Positions 953 to 10,065 of a DNA stretch of 11,210 bases are shown here, piece after piece. The notes under the pieces are model-generated. The model was given only the letters and a program-made list of their open reading frames with translations. It did no database searches and was not told where the DNA came from. Each line of letters opens with the position of its first letter. The first letter of the stretch is position 1. Source of the DNA: Halodesulfurarchaeum sp. (GTDB lineage Archaea; Halobacteriota; Halobacteria; Halobacteriales; Halobacteriaceae); assembly GCA_042216015.1 (NCBI GenBank), contig JBDGUI010000033.1:3571-14780 (forward strand). The letters run 5' to 3'. Made by a program: the position numbers and the translations under genes.

Positions 953-2443
953 ATGGCGGGCCGCTTCGAGATTCGATCCCAGGACGCCGCCGGCCGGATC
1001 GGGAAGCTCTCGGTCCCGCGGGCCGACACGACCGTCGAGACCCCGGTGCTCCTCCCGGTCGTCAACCCGCACTACCGGACCATCGACCCGGCCCGACTGG
1101 CCGACTTCGGCGTGTCGATGCTCATCACGAACGCCTACATCATCTATCAGGACGGGGAACTCCGAGAACGGGCCGAGCGGGAGGGGCTCCACGCAGTGGT
1201 CGGGTTCGAGGGGCCGATCATGACCGACTCGGGCTCCTTTCAACTCGCCGAGTACGGTGACATCTCGGTCACGACCGAGGAGATCCTGGCGTTCCAGCAC
1301 GCGATCGGATCGGACATCGGCACGCCGGTGGACATCCCGACCCACCCCGATGCCGACCGCGAGACCGTCGAGGCGGACCTCGCGGAGACCGAGCGGCGCC
1401 TCGCTGTTGCCGAATCCGCAGAGACCGGTGACATGCTCGTGACGGCCCCGGTCCAGGGCGGAACGTTCGCCGACCTGCGTGAGGCGGCCGGGAGAAACGC
1501 GGCCGCGACGGATCTCGATGTGTTTCCGATCGGGGCCGTCGTGCCGCTCCTGAACAACTACCGCTACGCCGAGGTCGTCGACCTGATGATGGCCGCAAAG
1601 CGAGGGCTGGGCCCGGCCGCGCCGGTCCACCTCTTCGGTGCCGGCCATCCCATGACGTTCGCGCTCGCGGCCGCCATTGGGGCGGATCTCTTCGATTCGG
1701 CCGCCTACGCGCTGTTCGCCCGGGAGGGGCGGTATCTGACCGTTCGCGGAACCAGGCACCTCGAGGACCTGACCGAGTTTCCCTGTTCCTGTGCGGTCTG
1801 TGTCGAGCACGAACCCGACGACCTCCGGGAGATGGAGGAGCCACGCCGTACGCGCCTGCTCGCCGAGCACAACCTCCACGTCTCCCTCGCCGAGATCCGC
1901 CGGATCCGGGAGGCCATTCGGGAGGGGTCGCTGCTCGAACTGGTCGAGGCGCGGGCCCACGCCCACCCCAGCCTGCTCGACGGATATCGGACGCTCGTCG
2001 ACCACGCCGAGCAACTCGAATCAGGCGATCGGGCGAGCAAGTCGACGTTCTTCTACCTCTCGGAAGACAGCGCCCGCCGACCGGAGGTCATTCGTCATCA
2101 CGCACGGCTCGACCGGCTCGACGTCGAGGGATCGCTCCTGCTCACCGAGGGGAGCGACGACGACCGGTTCGACGCGACCTGGCGGCTCAAGCCACCCTTC
2201 GGCCCGGTCCCGCCCGGGCTCTCGACGACCTATCCGCTGACGGCCGAGGTCCCGGAGAAGATGGACGACTCGGGATATACCGCCGCCGCGAAGGGGATCG
2301 CCAGACTGGTCGAGGCAAATCCGGAGGCGTCCATCACGGTCGCGGTGTGGGACTGGCCGGAGCGGGCGCTCGCAGAACTCCCCGACGGGGTGGGCATCGA
2401 GCGGCTGGGGCCCGACCGGGACGATGCCGGGATGGGAAAATAA
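953..2443 (+). CDS. tgtA: tRNA-guanine(15) transglycosylase (ArcTGT, 7-cyano-7-deazaguanine tRNA-ribosyltransferase)
   Basis: TGT motifs: N-terminal '[17 protein letters not shown]', '[10 protein letters not shown]', 'PVQGG', 'VHLFGAGHP', 'DLFDSAAY' (catalytic Asp) and Zn site 'CSCAVC...HN'. Adjacent to arcS. Confidence 0.96.
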
Positions 2444-2470
2444 TTCCCCGGCGACCACGCAGTGGGAGGC

Positions 2471-4228
2471 ATGACCGAGTATTTCGAGGTGCTCGACCGG
2501 GACGGGGCCGCCCGCGTCGGGGAACTCGGCCTCGCCGAGCCCCTGCAGACACCCGCGCTGATCGATGGGGCTCTGGAGGACGCCGGGAGTCTCTGGGCCG
2601 CGGAACGAGAGGTTCCGGCGGGTAGCGAGGACGAGCTCACTGTTCTGCCCCACCGAGCGTTCCCGCCGGGAACGCCGCGGGAGGTTCAGGCGGAACTCGA
2701 TGTGAATGCGCCGGCCGTCGACGGGCCGAGTGCAGCCGTCATCTCGCTGGAGACCGCGGGGAATCGGGGGACTGACGCGTACGTGCTGTCCGGCACTGGA
2801 CCGCTAATCGGCCACGCCCGAAAGTTCGTCCAGACGATGATCACGGTTCGACGCCACATTCCGGACGACACGGCGCTGCTGCTCTCGGGCGTCGCCCTGC
2901 CGATGAACGTCGGCCTGCTGGCCTACGCGGGGGTCGATCTGGTCGATGCAGACCGGGCGGTCGTCGCGGGGACCCAGGGCCGATATCTCGAGGGGACCGA
3001 GGAGACGCGCCTCGAGGAGCGGTCGGAGCTGTCCTGTGCCTGTCAGGCCTGCCGGCAATCCATCGGGAAATTCGACAGGAGGGACTGCGTCGATCACAAC
3101 GTGGCGGCCCTCGAGGCCGAGCTTGCGCGGGTCCGCGAACGCATCCGGCGGGGGCGGCTGCGGGAGTACCTGGAGGGACAGGCCAGACACGCCCCGTGGA
3201 TGACCGCCGCCCTGCGGCGGTTCGACCAGGAGGACGGATACGTGCGCGAGCGGACGCCGCTCTTCAGGCGGGCTGAGTTGCTCGCGACGACGGAGGATGC
3301 CCTCTTCCGGCCGGAGGTGACCCGCTTTGCCGACCGGCTGGCCGAGCGCTACCGGAATCGCTTCGAGGACGTCCCGCTGTTGCTCGTTCCGTGCTCGGCG
3401 AGAAAGCCGTACAGCGATTCGAAGAGCCACCGTCGGTTCCAGGAGGCAGCACGCTATCGCGGCCACAAGGTCTCGATCACGGCGCCCCTCGGGGTCGTTC
3501 CACAGGAGCTGGAGTTGACCTATCCAGCCCAGCACTACGACGCCGCGGTGACCCACGACTGGAGTGAGACCGAGATCGACGTCATCGCCGATCGGCTGGA
3601 GGCGCTGCTCGAGGCCACGGACTACTCCCGGGTGGTGGCACACGTCTCACCGGGCGGCGAGCGTCGGATCGTCGAGCGAGCACTCTCAGGGCGGGACCTC
3701 CCCGTCGAGTACACGGTCGGGGAGCACCCAACGGGGGGCGATTCGCTGGCGGCCCTCGGGGAGGCACTCGAGGGCGAGCGGACGATCCGGGTCGAAGAGA
3801 AGGAGCGAGCGACCCTGCGGGCCGTCGCGGACCATCAGTTCGGCGCCGGGGCCGGGGACACGCTTTTGGACGGATTCGACCTGCAGGGTCGGTATCCCCG
3901 GCTCCAGGCGCTCCGGAAGGACGGTGACCAGCTGGCCGCACTCGTCCCGCAATACGGCACGCTCGCGCTCTCCATCGCGGGTGCCAGACGGTGGGCCGAG
4001 AGCGACCTGCCCACGAAGCGGGTGGGGATCGACGCCTTCCGGCCCCACGGAACCGTTCTGGCCCCGGGCATCGTCGACGCCGACGAGTCGATCGGGGTCG
4101 GGGAGGAGGTCGTCATCGAGGGACCCGAGGCGTTCGGCATCGGGCGGGCGGAGATGCACGGCACGGCGATGGTCGAGAGCACCCGCGGCGAGGCCGTCGA
4201 CGTCCGACACGTCACCGATCCGCGGTAA
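2471..4228 (+). CDS. arcS: archaeosine synthase subunit alpha (ArcS, lysine transferase)
   Basis: Degenerate TGT-like N-terminus ('FEVLDRDGAARVG', 'CACQAC...HN'), ArcS motif 'LLVPCSARKPYSDSKSH', 'PLGVVPQELE..YPAQHYD', and a C-terminal PUA domain ('VLAPGIVDADESIGVGEEV'). Start placed at ATG 2471 behind GGAGG rather than at GTG 2462. Confidence 0.94.
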   Translation: MTEYFEVLDRDGAARVGELGLAEPLQTPALIDGALEDAGSLWAAEREVPAGSEDELTVLPHRAFPPGTPREVQAELDVNAPAVDGPSAAVISLETAGNRGTDAYVLSGTGPLIGHARKFVQTMITVRRHIPDDTALLLSGVALPMNVGLLAYAGVDLVDADRAVVAGTQGRYLEGTEETRLEERSELSCACQACRQSIGKFDRRDCVDHNVAALEAELARVRERIRRGRLREYLEGQARHAPWMTAALRRFDQEDGYVRERTPLFRRAELLATTEDALFRPEVTRFADRLAERYRNRFEDVPLLLVPCSARKPYSDSKSHRRFQEAARYRGHKVSITAPLGVVPQELELTYPAQHYDAAVTHDWSETEIDVIADRLEALLEATDYSRVVAHVSPGGERRIVERALSGRDLPVEYTVGEHPTGGDSLAALGEALEGERTIRVEEKERATLRAVADHQFGAGAGDTLLDGFDLQGRYPRLQALRKDGDQLAALVPQYGTLALSIAGARRWAESDLPTKRVGIDAFRPHGTVLAPGIVDADESIGVGEEVVIEGPEAFGIGRAEMHGTAMVESTRGEAVDVRHVTDPR

Positions 4229-4705: not shown

Positions 4706-5089
4706 ATGGAGGAACTTTCGCTGGGCGTCCCGCGCCAGATACTCGAGTCGCTTCCCGAAGACGGCGAGGACGCGGCCACGGACATGCAGACGGCCGTCGC
4801 AGCCTGGGAGGACCGGCTCAACGCGATCATCGAGGAGGCGCCGACCGACCAGGAGGCCGCAAGCGGCATCGTCGACGGCATCGACCGCCTCGAGGACCGA
4901 CGCGACAGGTACGACGACTTCGTCGTGGAACTCCGGGCCTGGGGGCAGTCGCCCATCTATGCGATCGCGTGGCGGAACCTCTACGGCGACCTCATCGCCC
5001 AGGTCTACGACCACGAGGGGATCGCCGAGACGATCGACCGGGAGCGAAACGCCCGGCTCGTCGAGGACGGAATCAGGCAAGGGCGATGA
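4706..5089 (+). CDS. hypothetical acidic, probably all-helical protein, first gene of the SAMP unit
   Basis: 127 aa from ATG 4706 (MEELSLGVPRQ...) with strongly halophilic composition. TTTTTG at 4676-4681 is at TATA distance. Its TGA overlaps the next ATG (ATGA, 5086-5089). Confidence 0.8.
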   Translation: MEELSLGVPRQILESLPEDGEDAATDMQTAVAAWEDRLNAIIEEAPTDQEAASGIVDGIDRLEDRRDRYDDFVVELRAWGQSPIYAIAWRNLYGDLIAQVYDHEGIAETIDRERNARLVEDGIRQGR

Positions 5090-5382
5090 CGACTGACGGG
5101 ACGATCGAACTCGAACTCAGGCTGTTTGCCACCTTCAGGGAGGCGGTTGGCCAGAAGACGATCACCCGCGAGTTCCCCGAATCGGTGACGGTGGGCGAAG
5201 TGCTTTCGGCCCTCGAGGAGGAATTCGAGGGGCTGGAGGATCAGCTCCTCGACGGGGAGGAGATCCAGCCCCAGCTCAACGTGCTGAAAAACGGGAAGGA
5301 GGTGCTTCACCTCGACGGGCTGGACGAAGGGCTCGCCACGGGGGATCGGCTCTCGCTGTTCCCGCCCGTCGCGGGTGGATAG
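5086..5382 (+). CDS. samp3: ubiquitin-like small archaeal modifier / MoaD-ThiS family sulfur carrier, SAMP3-like
   Basis: 98 aa beta-grasp signature 'ELELRLFATFREAVGQK...TVGEVL..LEEEF...NVLKNGKEV.HLDG......GDRLSLFPPVAGG' with C-terminal diglycine. From recall it is closer to Haloferax SAMP3 than to SAMP1. Confidence 0.88.
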   Translation: MTTDGTIELELRLFATFREAVGQKTITREFPESVTVGEVLSALEEEFEGLEDQLLDGEEIQPQLNVLKNGKEVLHLDGLDEGLATGDRLSLFPPVAGG

Positions 5383-5637
5383 ATGCGCGTGGAGCGCTCG
5401 TTTCGTGGCATCTCCCTTCGTCTCGCCCTGAAGTACATGGAGTCGGTCGGCGCGGAGACCGTCGGCGAGGACTTCGCCGAGGGCGACGGGTGGCGGGCCG
5501 ATCTCTCTGCGGAGAAAGTCGCGATCGGTCCCTCGCTCGAACTCACCGAGGTCACCGTCGTCTTCAAGGGCGAGGGGGACGTGCTCGAGGAGATCGTTCC
5601 CGCGTTCGCCAACAAAGCCATCCGCGCCGGCGGGTAG
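5383..5637 (+). CDS. small protein with C-terminal diglycine (RAGG), resembling the C-terminal (DUF1952-like) domain of the Thermus MoaD-related protein
   Basis: 84 aa. The ATG directly follows the SAMP stop in the same frame (GGT GGA TAG ATG) and the protein ends ...NKAIRAGG. The family assignment comes from recalled sequence similarity only. Confidence 0.78.
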   Translation: MRVERSFRGISLRLALKYMESVGAETVGEDFAEGDGWRADLSAEKVAIGPSLELTEVTVVFKGEGDVLEEIVPAFANKAIRAGG

Positions 5638-5669: not shown

Positions 5670-5960
5670 GTGTCAAGGGAGTGTAGGAGCCATCCGCAAC
5701 TCGACGTCCTCTTCGAGGACGAGTTCTCCCGGTTCGTCGCCGACGGACTCAGGCCCGAGGTCGTCATGAACGTTTCACCGGACCGGATCAACCTCGGAAT
5801 CCGGTCAGCCGACGGCTCGGCCGACGTCTTCCTCGGCGGGCTCTCGGTTTCTGAGGCGCGGTCGCTCAAAGCGACGATCGAAACGGTGATCGAGACAGTC
5901 GAGGGGGAGGGAGGCCTGGCAACGCTGACGGCGATCGACCCGAACGTTCCGGAGGACTGA
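5670..5960 (+). CDS. hypothetical protein (start uncertain: GTG 5670 or ATG 5766)
   Basis: The C-terminal part of ORF 5490..5960 has acidic, protein-like composition (LDVLFEDEFSRF...LSVSEARSLKATIETVIE), fills the gap and ends 9 nt before the convergent panB stop. Confidence 0.5.
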   Translation: MSRECRSHPQLDVLFEDEFSRFVADGLRPEVVMNVSPDRINLGIRSADGSADVFLGGLSVSEARSLKATIETVIETVEGEGGLATLTAIDPNVPED

Positions 5961-5969
5961 TCCGGTCGC

Positions 5970-6782
5970 CTACTCCCATCCGTCGATCGGCTCCTCGACG
6001 TAGTGATCCTCGGCGGGGAAGCTCCCCGACTCGACCTCCTCACGATACGACTCGATTCCCCGCTCCATCTCGCGCTGTACGTCCGCGTACTGCTTGGCGA
6101 AGGGCGGTACCCAGTCCCCGACCCCGAGCACGTCCGTGATGATCAGGCCCTGGCCGCTCACGTCCGGGCCGGCCCCGATACCGATCGTCGGGATGTCGAG
6201 TTCCTCGGTGACTCGCCGGGCGACGTTCGCCGGAATGTGCTCGAGGAGGAGCGAGAAAGCGCCGGCCTCCTCGTGCGCCCTCGCGAGTTCCATGATCTCC
6301 TCCGCCTCCTCGGCCTCGGTCGCGCGGCGGGTGAGATCCCCGGTCTCGTTCACCTTCTGCGGGCTCAACCCGAGGTGGGCCATCACCGGGATGCCGTTCT
6401 GGACCAGTCGCTCGGTCAACTCGATCGTGTTGTGGCCGCTCTCGTGTTTGATCGCCTGGGCGCCGGCCTCCTTGAGCATGCGTCCGGCCGTCTCGATCGC
6501 CTCGTCCTGGTCTGCCCCGTAGCTCATGAAGGGCATATCGGCGATCACCAGGGCGTCCTCCGTGGCGCGGGTGACCGCCCCGGTGTGACTCAGGATCTCC
6601 TCGACGGTGACCGGGAGGGTCGAGTCGTACCCGAGCATCGTGTTGCCGACGCTGTCGCCGACGAGAATCATGTCGATGCCGGCCTCGTCGACGGCTGCGG
6701 CCGTGGGGGCGTCGTAGGCGGTCAGAAAGGTCAGCGGTCGATCCGCGTCGTCGTGCGCGCGAATGTCGGCGACGGTTGGCAT
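5970..6782 (-). CDS. panB: 3-methyl-2-oxobutanoate hydroxymethyltransferase (ketopantoate hydroxymethyltransferase)
   Basis: Motifs 'LTAYDA', 'ILVGDS', 'IADMPFMSY', 'GIPVMAHLGL', 'AGAFSLLLE', 'PTIGIGAG..SGQ'. Start placed at ATG 6782, about 27 nt downstream of a minus-strand CTTATT. Confidence 0.96.
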   Translation of the reverse strand: MPTVADIRAHDDADRPLTFLTAYDAPTAAAVDEAGIDMILVGDSVGNTMLGYDSTLPVTVEEILSHTGAVTRATEDALVIADMPFMSYGADQDEAIETAGRMLKEAGAQAIKHESGHNTIELTERLVQNGIPVMAHLGLSPQKVNETGDLTRRATEAEEAEEIMELARAHEEAGAFSLLLEHIPANVARRVTEELDIPTIGIGAGPDVSGQGLIITDVLGVGDWVPPFAKQYADVQREMERGIESYREEVESGSFPAEDHYVEEPIDGWE

Positions 6783-6951
6783 ACTACCCATCAATTAGCC
6801 CGACCCAATAAGAGCCCTGCATCCGTCGAAACCTGCCAGCGGCTCGGCTCGCGATCGGTGTCGAAGTCGTTTTGGTGCGAAATTCGGTGGCGGTGACACG
6901 GGTCGTGGTGTGTCTGCCGGCGGGACTGGGACCAGGTGCCCCAACCGGTCC

Positions 6952-8874
6952 TCAGTCGTCTGCGGAGACTGCGCCACTCACGCCGGTGCCCGGGCCCACG
7001 TCGATGCCCAGTTCGTCGAGCTTTTCGTCGGGAACCACGCCGTCCTCCCAGCCGCGAACGTCGTAGTACTCCTCCTTGAGGAGGTCCATCTCGACCAGTT
7101 CGCCCTCGGCGGCGCCCTGGCCGGGGATTCCCTCCTCGCCCTCCTCGAGGAAGCGGTCCGGGAGCGTGTCGTCCTCGCCGTCGAAGCCGTTGAGGTTGTT
7201 GAAGTACCGCTCGAGCGTGTAGATGCGCTCGCCGGCCTCCGTGAGTTCGTCCTCCGTGACGTCCCGCCCGGTCATGCCGTTGTACTGGGCGGTGTACTCC
7301 TCGATGCCCTCGGCGAAGGCGCTGAACTTGCAGATGTCAAAGGAGTCAGAGACCGCATGGAGGTCCTGGAACACCGCGAGCAGCTCGCCCTTGCCCTCCC
7401 ACTCCGTCGGGTCGACCTTCTCCGGGATGCCGAGCACCTCGGCGGCCGGGGTGTACCCGCGCAGGTGACACGCACCGCGGTTCGAGGTGGCATAGCCGAT
7501 CGCCATGCCCTTCATGCCCCGCGGGTCGTAGGCCGGAATCGTCTGGTTCTTGACGTCGAGCCGGGTGTCCTCGGCGTCGAACGTCTCAGCAGCGCCGGCC
7601 GCGCCCTCGCCGAGTGCCTCGCTCAGGTCGTCCTCGCGGCGCCCGATGCGCTCGATGAGGCCGATCATCTGGTCGGCGTCGCCCCAGTCGATACCATCCT
7701 CGATGTAGCCCTTCTCGTCCATCTCCATGGCCATCGCGATGATGTTCCCGGTCTCGATGGCGTCGATGCCCATCTTGTTGCACCGGTCGATCATGATGGC
7801 CAGCTTCTCCACGTCGTCGTTCATGGAGTTCGGCCCGAAGGTGAACGCGGGCTCGTACTCCAGGGACTCCATCCGGACGTCGACCTGCTCGCCGTCGACG
7901 GTGGTGCTGACCTCGACCTCCTTCTTGCAGGCGACCGGACAGGAGTGACAGGTCGGCTCGTCCACCAGGATGTTCTCGCGGACGTACTCCCCGGAGACGT
8001 TCTCGGCGTCGATGTTCGGCTCCTCGGGTTCGGTCTCCCGCTCGGCCCGGGTCGAGGTGTACTTGCCGTTGCGGGTCGGCAGGGCGTCGATCTCCTCGGT
8101 GAGGTTCATCAGGACGTTCGTCCCGTACACCGAGAGCCCGCCCTCGTTCGGCGCGGTGACGTCTGACTCCCGGACCACCGACATCGCCTCGGAGGTCCCC
8201 TCACCGAACTGCTCGGGGTTCGCGGGCTCGGGCATGTCCGTCGTGGCCTTCACCATCACGGCCTTGAGGTTCTTCGCGCCCATCACGCAGCCGGTCCCGC
8301 CGCGCCCGCTCGCGCGGTCGTCCTCGTTCATGATGCAGGCGTACTTCACGCCGTTCTCCCCACCTGGGCCGATGCCCATGTAGCTCAGGTTCTTGCCGTA
8401 CTGTCCCTCGACTTCCTCCTCGAGGGCCTCGCGGGCCTCGTGGGTCGTCATGCCCCAGAGGTGGGAGGCATCCCGGAGTTCGACCTCGCCGTCCTCCACG
8501 ACGGCATAGACCGGTTCGTCGGCCTCGCCCTCGAAGACCAGGCCGTCCAGCCCCGACCACTTCAGCCGGGCGCCACTCCAGCCCCCGTGGTGGGAATCGG
8601 TAACGGTCCCGGTGAGCGGGGACTTCGTGACGACGGCGATTCGACCGGACATGACCGCCCGCGAGCCCGTCAGTGGACCGGTCATGAACGTGAGGATGTT
8701 CTCCGGTCCCGTCGGGTCCACGTCGGGCCCGTTGTCGAAGACGTATTTGACACCCAGGCCCCGCGCCCCGATGTACTTCTTGGCGTCCTCGTCCGGGATT
8801 GGCTCGTACTCGGTCTCGCCCGCGCTCAGGTCGACGCGGGCGACACAGTCATTAAATCCGCCGAGTTCTGTCAT
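6952..8874 (-). CDS. aor: aldehyde:ferredoxin oxidoreductase family tungstopterin/4Fe-4S enzyme
   Basis: 640 aa from ATG 8874, with GGAGG at 8885-8881. Motifs 'YIGARGLG', 'KSPLTG...S..GG', 'GRGGTGCVMGAKNLKA', Fe-S ligands 'CHSCPVAC' and 'NRGACHL', active-site 'EYE', 'YDPRG', 'YYDVRGW..GV'. Confidence 0.94.
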   Translation of the reverse strand: MTELGGFNDCVARVDLSAGETEYEPIPDEDAKKYIGARGLGVKYVFDNGPDVDPTGPENILTFMTGPLTGSRAVMSGRIAVVTKSPLTGTVTDSHHGGWSGARLKWSGLDGLVFEGEADEPVYAVVEDGEVELRDASHLWGMTTHEAREALEEEVEGQYGKNLSYMGIGPGGENGVKYACIMNEDDRASGRGGTGCVMGAKNLKAVMVKATTDMPEPANPEQFGEGTSEAMSVVRESDVTAPNEGGLSVYGTNVLMNLTEEIDALPTRNGKYTSTRAERETEPEEPNIDAENVSGEYVRENILVDEPTCHSCPVACKKEVEVSTTVDGEQVDVRMESLEYEPAFTFGPNSMNDDVEKLAIMIDRCNKMGIDAIETGNIIAMAMEMDEKGYIEDGIDWGDADQMIGLIERIGRREDDLSEALGEGAAGAAETFDAEDTRLDVKNQTIPAYDPRGMKGMAIGYATSNRGACHLRGYTPAAEVLGIPEKVDPTEWEGKGELLAVFQDLHAVSDSFDICKFSAFAEGIEEYTAQYNGMTGRDVTEDELTEAGERIYTLERYFNNLNGFDGEDDTLPDRFLEEGEEGIPGQGAAEGELVEMDLLKEEYYDVRGWEDGVVPDEKLDELGIDVGPGTGVSGAVSADD

Positions 8875-8997: not shown

Positions 8998-10065
<1,068 letters not shown>

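Follow-up and report, generated by a model that had tools for sequence, protein, structure and literature searches.

Gene content of the locus

The subject of this study is an 11,210-nt stretch of a Halodesulfurarchaeum sp. genome (assembly GCA_042216015.1, contig JBDGUI010000033.1; host genome 87% complete), referred to below as the window, in which two adjacent genes on the forward strand encode small proteins that both end in Gly-Gly (GG). The first gene (positions 5086-5382, stop codon TAG) encodes a 98-amino-acid ubiquitin-like protein of the SAMP3 type (MoaD/ThiS, beta-grasp) ending in PPVAGG, and the second (5383-5637) encodes an 84-amino-acid DUF1952 (PF09189) protein with a conserved K-x-x-R-[AG]-G-G end. 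As described in an earlier reading of the DNA made without database searches (the sequence-only reading), the first frame closes with FPPVAGG-TAG, and the next codon, at 5383, is the ATG of the second frame, which closes with IRAGG-TAG at 5637. We interpret this zero-gap TAG/ATG junction (5380-5385, forward strand) as a stop plus restart, or translational coupling. Immediately upstream lies a gene for a 127-amino-acid protein, predicted to be all-helical and assigned to no family (4706-5089, forward strand), which overlaps the SAMP3 start with its own stop codon (ATGA) and is the third member of the module in haloarchaea. The opposite strand carries, 1.3 kb further downstream, the gene for a tungsten-dependent aldehyde:ferredoxin oxidoreductase (AOR) of clade 83 (WOR83; 640 amino acids, with AFOR_N and AFOR_C matches; 6952-8874, reverse strand, start codon at 8874-8872), so that the SAMP3-DUF1952 pair and WOR83 are convergent. 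The evidence presented below makes it very probable that DUF1952 belongs to a WOR83-linked module, a conclusion much firmer than any mechanism that can be proposed for it. The sequence-only reading had correctly identified the pair but missed the module that tracks WOR83.

The frame at 5086-5382 matches three models of the ThiS/MoaD family (PF02597, NF041918, and TIGR01687), and its best match in the Protein Data Bank (PDB) is 2M19 (E 6.5e-31, against 1e-11 for SAMP1 entries), which we take to be Haloferax volcanii SAMP3. With its terminal GG, its ThiS/MoaD profile, and a two-tier pattern of SAMP3-level and SAMP1-level matches across genomes, this protein is a likely ortholog of H. volcanii SAMP3 (HVO_2177). 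E1 and JAMM genes are present here as well (one E1 and two JAMM-family genes in the window's genome), and SAMP1-like and SAMP2-like genes are found on contigs C19 and C34. In the portions of the literature drawn on here, H. volcanii SAMP3 modifies proteins and is not required for dimethyl sulfoxide (DMSO) reductase, an enzyme dependent on the molybdenum cofactor (Moco) (PMC4443979); SAMP1-3 are ligated to proteins by UbaA (PMC7305310); and an early negative result for SAMP3 is traced to a wrong start codon (PMC4500146).

Judged by sequence, the AOR of the window is a clade-83 enzyme: the PDB entry 9Q1T ('WOR83 from Haloferax volcanii') matches it with 1018 bits, while other solved AORs reach at most 436 bits, and the clade-83 table lists Halodesulfurarchaeum together with Anaerobacillus and Thermus (PMC9424855 supplement). 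The same clade includes BmWOR, which is catalytically active in air (PMC9424855, PMC13328260). A ThiS-like neighbor of class I WORs, 'WorX', has been described as a protein of unknown function with a predicted role in pterin biosynthesis (PMC13328260), and AOR-linked MoaD genes were pointed out earlier and read as sulfur carriers (PMC1779556, PMC2948915, PMC11323500). The WorX accounts, in the parts of PMC13328260 available here, concern one beta-grasp neighbor and mention neither a second, non-beta-grasp GG protein nor a 127-amino-acid gene.

Between DUF1952 and WOR83 the window carries a 93-amino-acid open reading frame that occurs in no other locus (5679-5960, forward strand) and a panB gene (5970-6794, reverse strand); a second panB copy is located on contig C3 of the same genome. 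The nearest named relatives are from Halodesulfurarchaeum (82% for the small protein and 96% for the AOR). A sigma-70 scan of the window, which does not cover archaeal promoters, detected no promoter-like site, and no TupA match was found in the incomplete genome. No RNA data set was listed as containing the stretch.

Fold and diglycine end of the DUF1952 protein

The sequence-only reading held that the second protein lacks the MoaD/ThiS pattern and by eye resembles the second domain of the Thermus thermophilus MoaD-related protein (PDB 1V8C), and both statements are borne out. No ThiS match was found. A precomputed PF09189 label is attached to all 120 listed homologs, and the Atlas cluster is 100% PF09189 (score 0.94). 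The local PF09189 model, an older one, matched 5 of 39 aligned homologs and did not match the window protein itself; it was too narrow to match any of 301 genomes. Because PDB sequence searches with the window protein or with a haloarchaeal profile also gave no match, a fold search and a profile of the bacterial homologs were needed. The bacterial profile matches residues 90-167 of 1V8C by sequence (E 5e-12), Foldseek pairs the predicted model with the same entry (E 4.8e-5, TM-score 0.72), and structural alignment of the model with residues 87-165 gives a Z of 11.9 and a root-mean-square deviation of 1.6 Å over 79 aligned residues, the next match having a Z of 8.0. The predicted topology is E-H-E-E-E-H (beta-alpha-beta-beta-beta-alpha) with a long final helix (predicted local distance difference test, pLDDT, 94). 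Based on this topology and on the positive match to a different domain, the modeled protein is not a beta-grasp. Among unrelated folds, KA1-type interaction domains come closest (Z about 8), and the protein has no conserved cysteine, with 65 of 96 aligned sequences lacking cysteine altogether. Weak DUF5376 matches were also seen.

The account of 1V8C in the sequence-only reading was accurate. Its MoaD part (residues 3-87) ends in PPVAGG, and its second domain ends in ...ASRGG at residue 167 of 168 (residue 168 is not shown). The Thermus protein thus has the same two domains in the same order, the same internal PPVAGG, and a terminal R-G-G, but it is one polypeptide whereas the window encodes two genes. 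The literature searched gave no function for the 1V8C protein, and a search of viral contigs with one bacterial query found no relative.

Conservation of the terminal GG on this non-beta-grasp fold, which the sequence-only reading had anticipated, is confirmed by a survey of homologs. Among the listed close homologs, 119 of 120 end in GG, and the lone exception is a partial sequence. A profile search over 1.84 billion proteins gave 198 matches, and of the best 150 representatives 136 end in GG, 124 of them in RAGG or RGGG; named sources among the 20 representatives looked up were Chloroflexota, Anaerolineales, Alkaliphilus, Anaerobacillus, and Microaerobacter. In a 96-sequence archaeal-bacterial alignment, G84 (99%) and G83 (98%) are conserved best of all columns, ahead of the core W and Y, and R81 reaches 96%. 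In the predicted model the tail caps the long helix, with the conserved K78 and R81 nearby. A GG-stop also ends DUF1952 in each of 81 haloarchaeal loci (the window plus the best 80 of 273 genome loci, a set biased toward the window's kin). The frequency of GG ends among the homologs is far above chance, since 9 of 1372 gene-like open reading frames in the window's genome end in this way. Since all four glycine codons are used at both positions over the 81 loci, selection has acted on the protein.

A probable sister family, by profile comparison, is TIGR04140 (chp_AF_0576), which aligns with DUF1952 profile to profile with a probability of 92.6% (E 4.6e-7). The lone non-haloarchaeal match of the DUF1952 profile was a TIGR04140 protein (locus L134, 3449-3706) that ends in RMGG and lies beside a TIGR04084 radical S-adenosylmethionine (SAM) gene. 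TIGR04140 was found in 11 of 301 genomes, all from a single family (labeled f10; loci including L137-L147), and it resembles DUF1952 in its tail (GG in 10 of 11, mostly R-x-G-G). Unlike DUF1952, it has no MoaD or AOR among its annotated neighbors within 1.5 kb, and 4 of its 11 loci have a radical SAM gene next to it.

Association with WOR83 in haloarchaea and bacteria

The distribution of DUF1952 was examined in one evenly drawn set of 201 Halobacteria genomes, with the lists of positive genomes compared by eye. DUF1952 was present in 157 genomes and an AOR match in 158, and the two lists differ by a single genome (G410), which lacks DUF1952 and whose best AOR match is paralog-level (E 2.5e-57). 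All 157 genomes with DUF1952 carry WOR83, and the 43 genomes without an AOR match also lack DUF1952; these counts include related genomes and are not independent. Presence is mixed within at least six genera (4 of 9 genomes in g2, 10 of 11 in g5, 4 of 5 in g10, 8 of 9 in g11, 1 of 3 in g14, and 2 of 3 in g19), and the DUF1952 and WOR83 genes are far apart in G437 and in G403, where megabases separate them, so neither simple linkage nor a single ancient loss is sufficient as an explanation. General Moco biosynthesis was considered as the partner and rejected, as MoaE is kept in 43 of the 44 DUF1952-negative genomes and SAMP1-level matches persist in them. These 44 genomes gave SAMP1-level matches only, while a SAMP3-level match was found in 10 of 10 positive genomes tested. 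Outside the haloarchaea, a broad DUF1952 profile matched 1 of 254 archaeal genomes, and 30 of 38 tested genomes carry AORs of other clades (identity at most 44%).

The association is also evident in gene order. WOR83 or a paralog lies within 5 kb of DUF1952 in 55 of the 81 loci, and in 49 of them the ortholog is downstream on the opposite strand. Second DUF1952 copies occur away from SAMP3 and WOR83 at five loci (L114, L115, L116, L122, and L123), with two ending in RAPG, one in RASG, one in RAGG, and one interrupted by TAG. In bacteria, 24 metagenome loci were retrieved with one narrow end motif (two have the same sequence and several are short). MoaD is directly upstream of DUF1952 in 17 of these, and 13 have an AOR with 49-55% identity facing the pair from the opposite strand downstream, which is the convergent layout of the haloarchaea. 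A ThiF/MoeB (E1) gene is nearby in 4 of the 24 loci, MoaD-DUF1952 is directly preceded by a W_rSAM_matur-like gene (below the family cut-off) in 6, and one locus additionally holds MoaA, two MoeA, and TupABC-like genes. Clade 83 has been reported from haloarchaea, Deinococcota, Chloroflexota, and Firmicutes, mostly aerobes, with wor on the strand opposite to its neighbors (PMC9424855), and the named DUF1952 homologs fall in the same taxonomic range.

The 127-amino-acid gene is present in 63 of the 81 loci, and in 30 of 30 DUF1952-positive but 0 of 44 DUF1952-negative genomes tested. Its product had no Pfam, NCBIfam, Atlas, or fold match and is helical in a single-sequence model of moderate quality (pLDDT 71), so the missing fold match says nothing about the novelty of its fold. 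It does not match HalOD1, the family to which HVO_2176 is assigned (PMC10869688).

Several other genes recur at these loci. A 126-amino-acid protein without a Pfam match follows DUF1952 in 59 of the 81 loci (cluster 1; L039, 5253-5633, forward strand, and 58 others); it is absent from the window and could be a fifth member of the module. In Haloarcula-type loci, SAMP3 adjoins a gene for a 141-amino-acid protein that matches ThiS weakly (E 8e-5) and closes with FPFIFCC instead of GG (cluster 21; L034, 4012-4437, reverse strand, and 15 other loci); it may be a further variant carrier. In 26-28 of the 81 loci, mostly from Natrialbaceae, an AzlC/AzlD pair for amino-acid export is located next to SAMP3 and DUF1952 or between them (e.g., L020, 139-966; L017, 4610-4930), which would fit a metabolism of amino-acid-derived aldehydes. 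The archaeosine genes tgtA, arcS, and raSEA flank the WOR83 module of the window on both sides (953-4228 and 8998-10065, both forward strand); a functional link to them was rejected, since these genes are found near DUF1952 in a minority of loci (14, 17, and 10 of 81, respectively), which indicates local synteny.

Junctions, fusions, and possible roles of the diglycine tail

An assembly error as the origin of this TAG was rejected, because both contigs covering the whole stretch, from two DNA runs of one study, keep the same stop. One of these contigs is identical to the window and may be the source of this DNA; the other has one synonymous change, at 5406. The sequence-only reading had proposed that readthrough of this amber stop recreates the Thermus-type fusion, and the TAG/ATG arrangement is indeed kept in the three same-genus genomes and the one same-family genome examined and in 10 of the 81 loci; real SAMP3-DUF1952 fusions also exist. 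Across the 81 loci, however, the genes are adjacent but out of frame in 24, more than 150 nt apart in 36, and in frame with a gap in 4; the remaining loci have a zero-gap TGA/ATG (1), a fusion (2), or no SAMP3 (4). None of 14 bacterial junctions checked (of the 17 with an adjacent MoaD) is a zero-gap stop-ATG. A quick tree of WOR83, with 44 rows after 16 loci were left out as near-duplicates or paralogs, places the zero-gap loci in two inherited clusters, one of which also contains loci that lost the arrangement. Zero gap is, moreover, the commonest close junction after TAG in the window's genome (10 of 39 close pairs, from heuristic gene calls). A readthrough product would also bury the SAMP3 GG that the stop sets free. 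Because frame and spacing vary among relatives, readthrough fails the test that its own proposer had set and was rejected as a conserved mechanism; as an occasional source of a regulated fusion product it is extremely unlikely. The lone stop that parts the two genes reflects ordinary gene packing. Neither PylS nor a CUA tRNA was found in the window's genome, at its 87% completeness.

Two of the 81 loci (one from Halospeciosus flavus, one from a Salinarchaeum metagenome-assembled genome) and 4 of 20 hand-picked genome regions hold genuine fusions of the SAMP3-GG-DUF1952-GG type, and 14 fusions were present among the best 150 representatives, all ordered Ubl-GG-DUF1952-GG (Ubl, ubiquitin-like domain). 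Fused and split forms occur within one genus (g4; G100 fused, G008, G124, and G437 split), and of the three fused rows on the WOR83 tree, two are placed among split forms in different groups with good support, and the third has no resolved position at the base. Where SAMP3 is a separate gene, 20 of 75 copies extend 1-27 residues beyond the GG, mostly via an ATGA overlap. In two fusions (P0126 and P0137) DUF1952 is joined to more divergent ubiquitin-like domains that end in PRIQGG and SRVRGG and are not of the SAMP3 type.

These fusions, found in haloarchaea and bacteria, are in line with the suggestion of the sequence-only reading that the fused form is a cleavable precursor. In vivo as well as in vitro, HvJAMM1 cuts precisely behind the GG of an engineered linear fusion of SAMP1 and MoaE (PMC4443979), and the MoaD-MoaE linear fusions opened by JAMM likewise carry a ubiquitin-like domain joined via GG and freed by cleavage (PMC4443979). 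The partner here differs from that in MoaD-MoaE fusions: it is a protein other than MoaE and has a GG end of its own, so that one cut would yield two GG-ended products. By analogy, SAMP3 tails and fusions may be trimmed by JAMM. As JAMM is expected to recognize the beta-grasp, DUF1952 would always be placed last and almost never tailed, as observed; we infer that DUF1952 is not trimmable and hence is encoded with a free end.

A working model can be assembled from these observations. The two frames would be made as separate proteins by stop and restart, and the module of SAMP3 and DUF1952 (with the 127-amino-acid helical protein in haloarchaea) would serve WOR83. SAMP3, activated by UbaA, would act as a dedicated MoaD-type sulfur carrier for the WOR83 cofactor, the role predicted for WorX (PMC13328260). 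The dispensability of SAMP3 for DMSO reductase leaves room for such a role. DUF1952 would require its free C-terminal R-x-Gly-Gly, presented from the helix end, and would be adenylated by an E1 (UbaA, or the ThiF/MoeB beside bacterial clusters), becoming a second thiocarboxylate carrier that builds or repairs the tungsten-pterin center of WOR83. Where the genes are fused or SAMP3 is tailed, a JAMM protease would free the SAMP3 end. A terminal diglycine beside MoaD and an E1 gene is a known signature of E1 substrates. E1-family enzymes can also adenylate ends that are not ubiquitin-shaped, such as that of the nucleotidyltransferase (CD-NTase) acted on by Cap2 in CBASS antiphage defense and that of the microcin C precursor acted on by MccB; unlike the system proposed here, these have their own dedicated E1s and function in defense or antibiotic synthesis, and no sulfur carrier for a metal cofactor is known among them. 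E1 activation of DUF1952 as a second sulfur carrier for WOR83 is the likeliest of the mechanisms considered but still a tentative reading, with a chance a little below even. Its extension, in which DUF1952 and TIGR04140 form a second, non-beta-grasp class of E1-activated thiocarboxylate carriers and DUF1952 together with SAMP3 (JAMM-released where fused) gives a WOR83-specific sulfur step, is conceivable but rather doubtful.

Several observations weigh against this carrier model. Fourteen of the 150 distant representatives do not end in GG, some because they are truncated and others because they end in RAGA, RGGA, RAAG, or RAPG, and the last helix of the predicted model runs to residue 82, so that the tail must unwind before an E1 site becomes accessible to it. 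Neither MoaD nor AOR is found nearby at five clostridial-type loci (L084, L085, L089, L101, and L103, with ends FMRAGG), and the second haloarchaeal copies that end in RAPG or RASG sit away from WOR83. TIGR04140 keeps its GG with no WOR83-level match in the f10 genomes tested; the tail is thus not unique to the WOR83 pathway and seems older than the link to it, which strengthens the case for a chemistry of the tail and weakens that for a chemistry unique to WOR83. The co-occurring genomes are related, and the 43 genomes without an AOR match lack every AOR paralog, so the link could be to haloarchaeal AOR or tungsten metabolism in general. In addition, Humbard et al. in 2010 are said to have expressed a GG-ending neighbor of samp3 and to have seen no conjugates.

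There are other potential explanations for the conserved tail. The R-x-G-G may never be activated and may instead serve for docking, with its free carboxylate binding WOR83, the cofactor, or the SAMP3 machinery, so that DUF1952 would work as an adaptor or chaperone, or else as a decoy occupying E1, MoaE, or JAMM. GG conservation and WOR83 co-occurrence also fit such a role, and the helix-capping position of the tail with K78 and R81, the few members ending in GA, AG, or PG, the KA1-type interaction domains among the nearest folds, and the lack of a conserved cysteine all point in this direction; yet in a pure docking motif the two glycines would have no evident purpose, and a diglycine beside MoaD and, in some Firmicutes-type loci, an E1 gene is what an E1 substrate looks like. 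We consider docking somewhat unlikely. It is less probable still, and on balance quite unlikely, that DUF1952 is a covalent tag, attached like SAMP1-3 by its last glycine to lysine residues of WOR83 or of other proteins. UbaA performs such ligations (PMC7305310), the GG end is free, and a wrong start codon accounts for the early negative result with SAMP3 itself (PMC4500146). Removal of a non-beta-grasp tag by JAMM, on the other hand, is doubtful, and the strict tie to one enzyme family suits cofactor work better than general tagging. The reported failure to see conjugates also counts against a tag. A radical SAM/SPASM enzyme might alternatively use the GG-tailed domain as substrate or scaffold in maturation of the tungsten cofactor, as the W_rSAM_matur-like genes of the 6 bacterial loci and the radical SAM genes adjoining TIGR04140 in 4 of 11 loci could suggest; in haloarchaea, the recurrent neighbors include no such enzyme except the archaeosine enzyme RaSEA (10 of 81 loci), and this explanation is very unlikely.

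The domains themselves, the Thermus fusion, SAMP3, and AOR-linked MoaD genes were already known. The literature searched contained no statement of the free GG end of DUF1952, its tie to WOR83, a link between SAMP3 and WOR83, or the kinship with TIGR04140, although key SAMP papers and the neighborhood table of PMC13328260 may already mention them; the frequent tails or fusions of SAMP3 were not found there either, nor were HVO_2178, PF09189, or 'MoaD-related C-terminal'.

The amber stop that drew attention to this locus is ordinary, and the module around it spans archaea and bacteria. If the carrier model is true, SAMP3 would gain a physiological job, and the module may bear on how clade-83 enzymes work in air; its accessory genes may also matter for expressing these enzymes in another host. 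Activation of DUF1952 by UbaA would mean that sulfur carriers extend beyond the ubiquitin fold and that searches filtered for the beta-grasp miss a class of them. The purpose of SAMP3 and the role of the 1V8C/DUF1952 domain would both be tied to WOR83, a connection that can be tested in a tractable archaeon.

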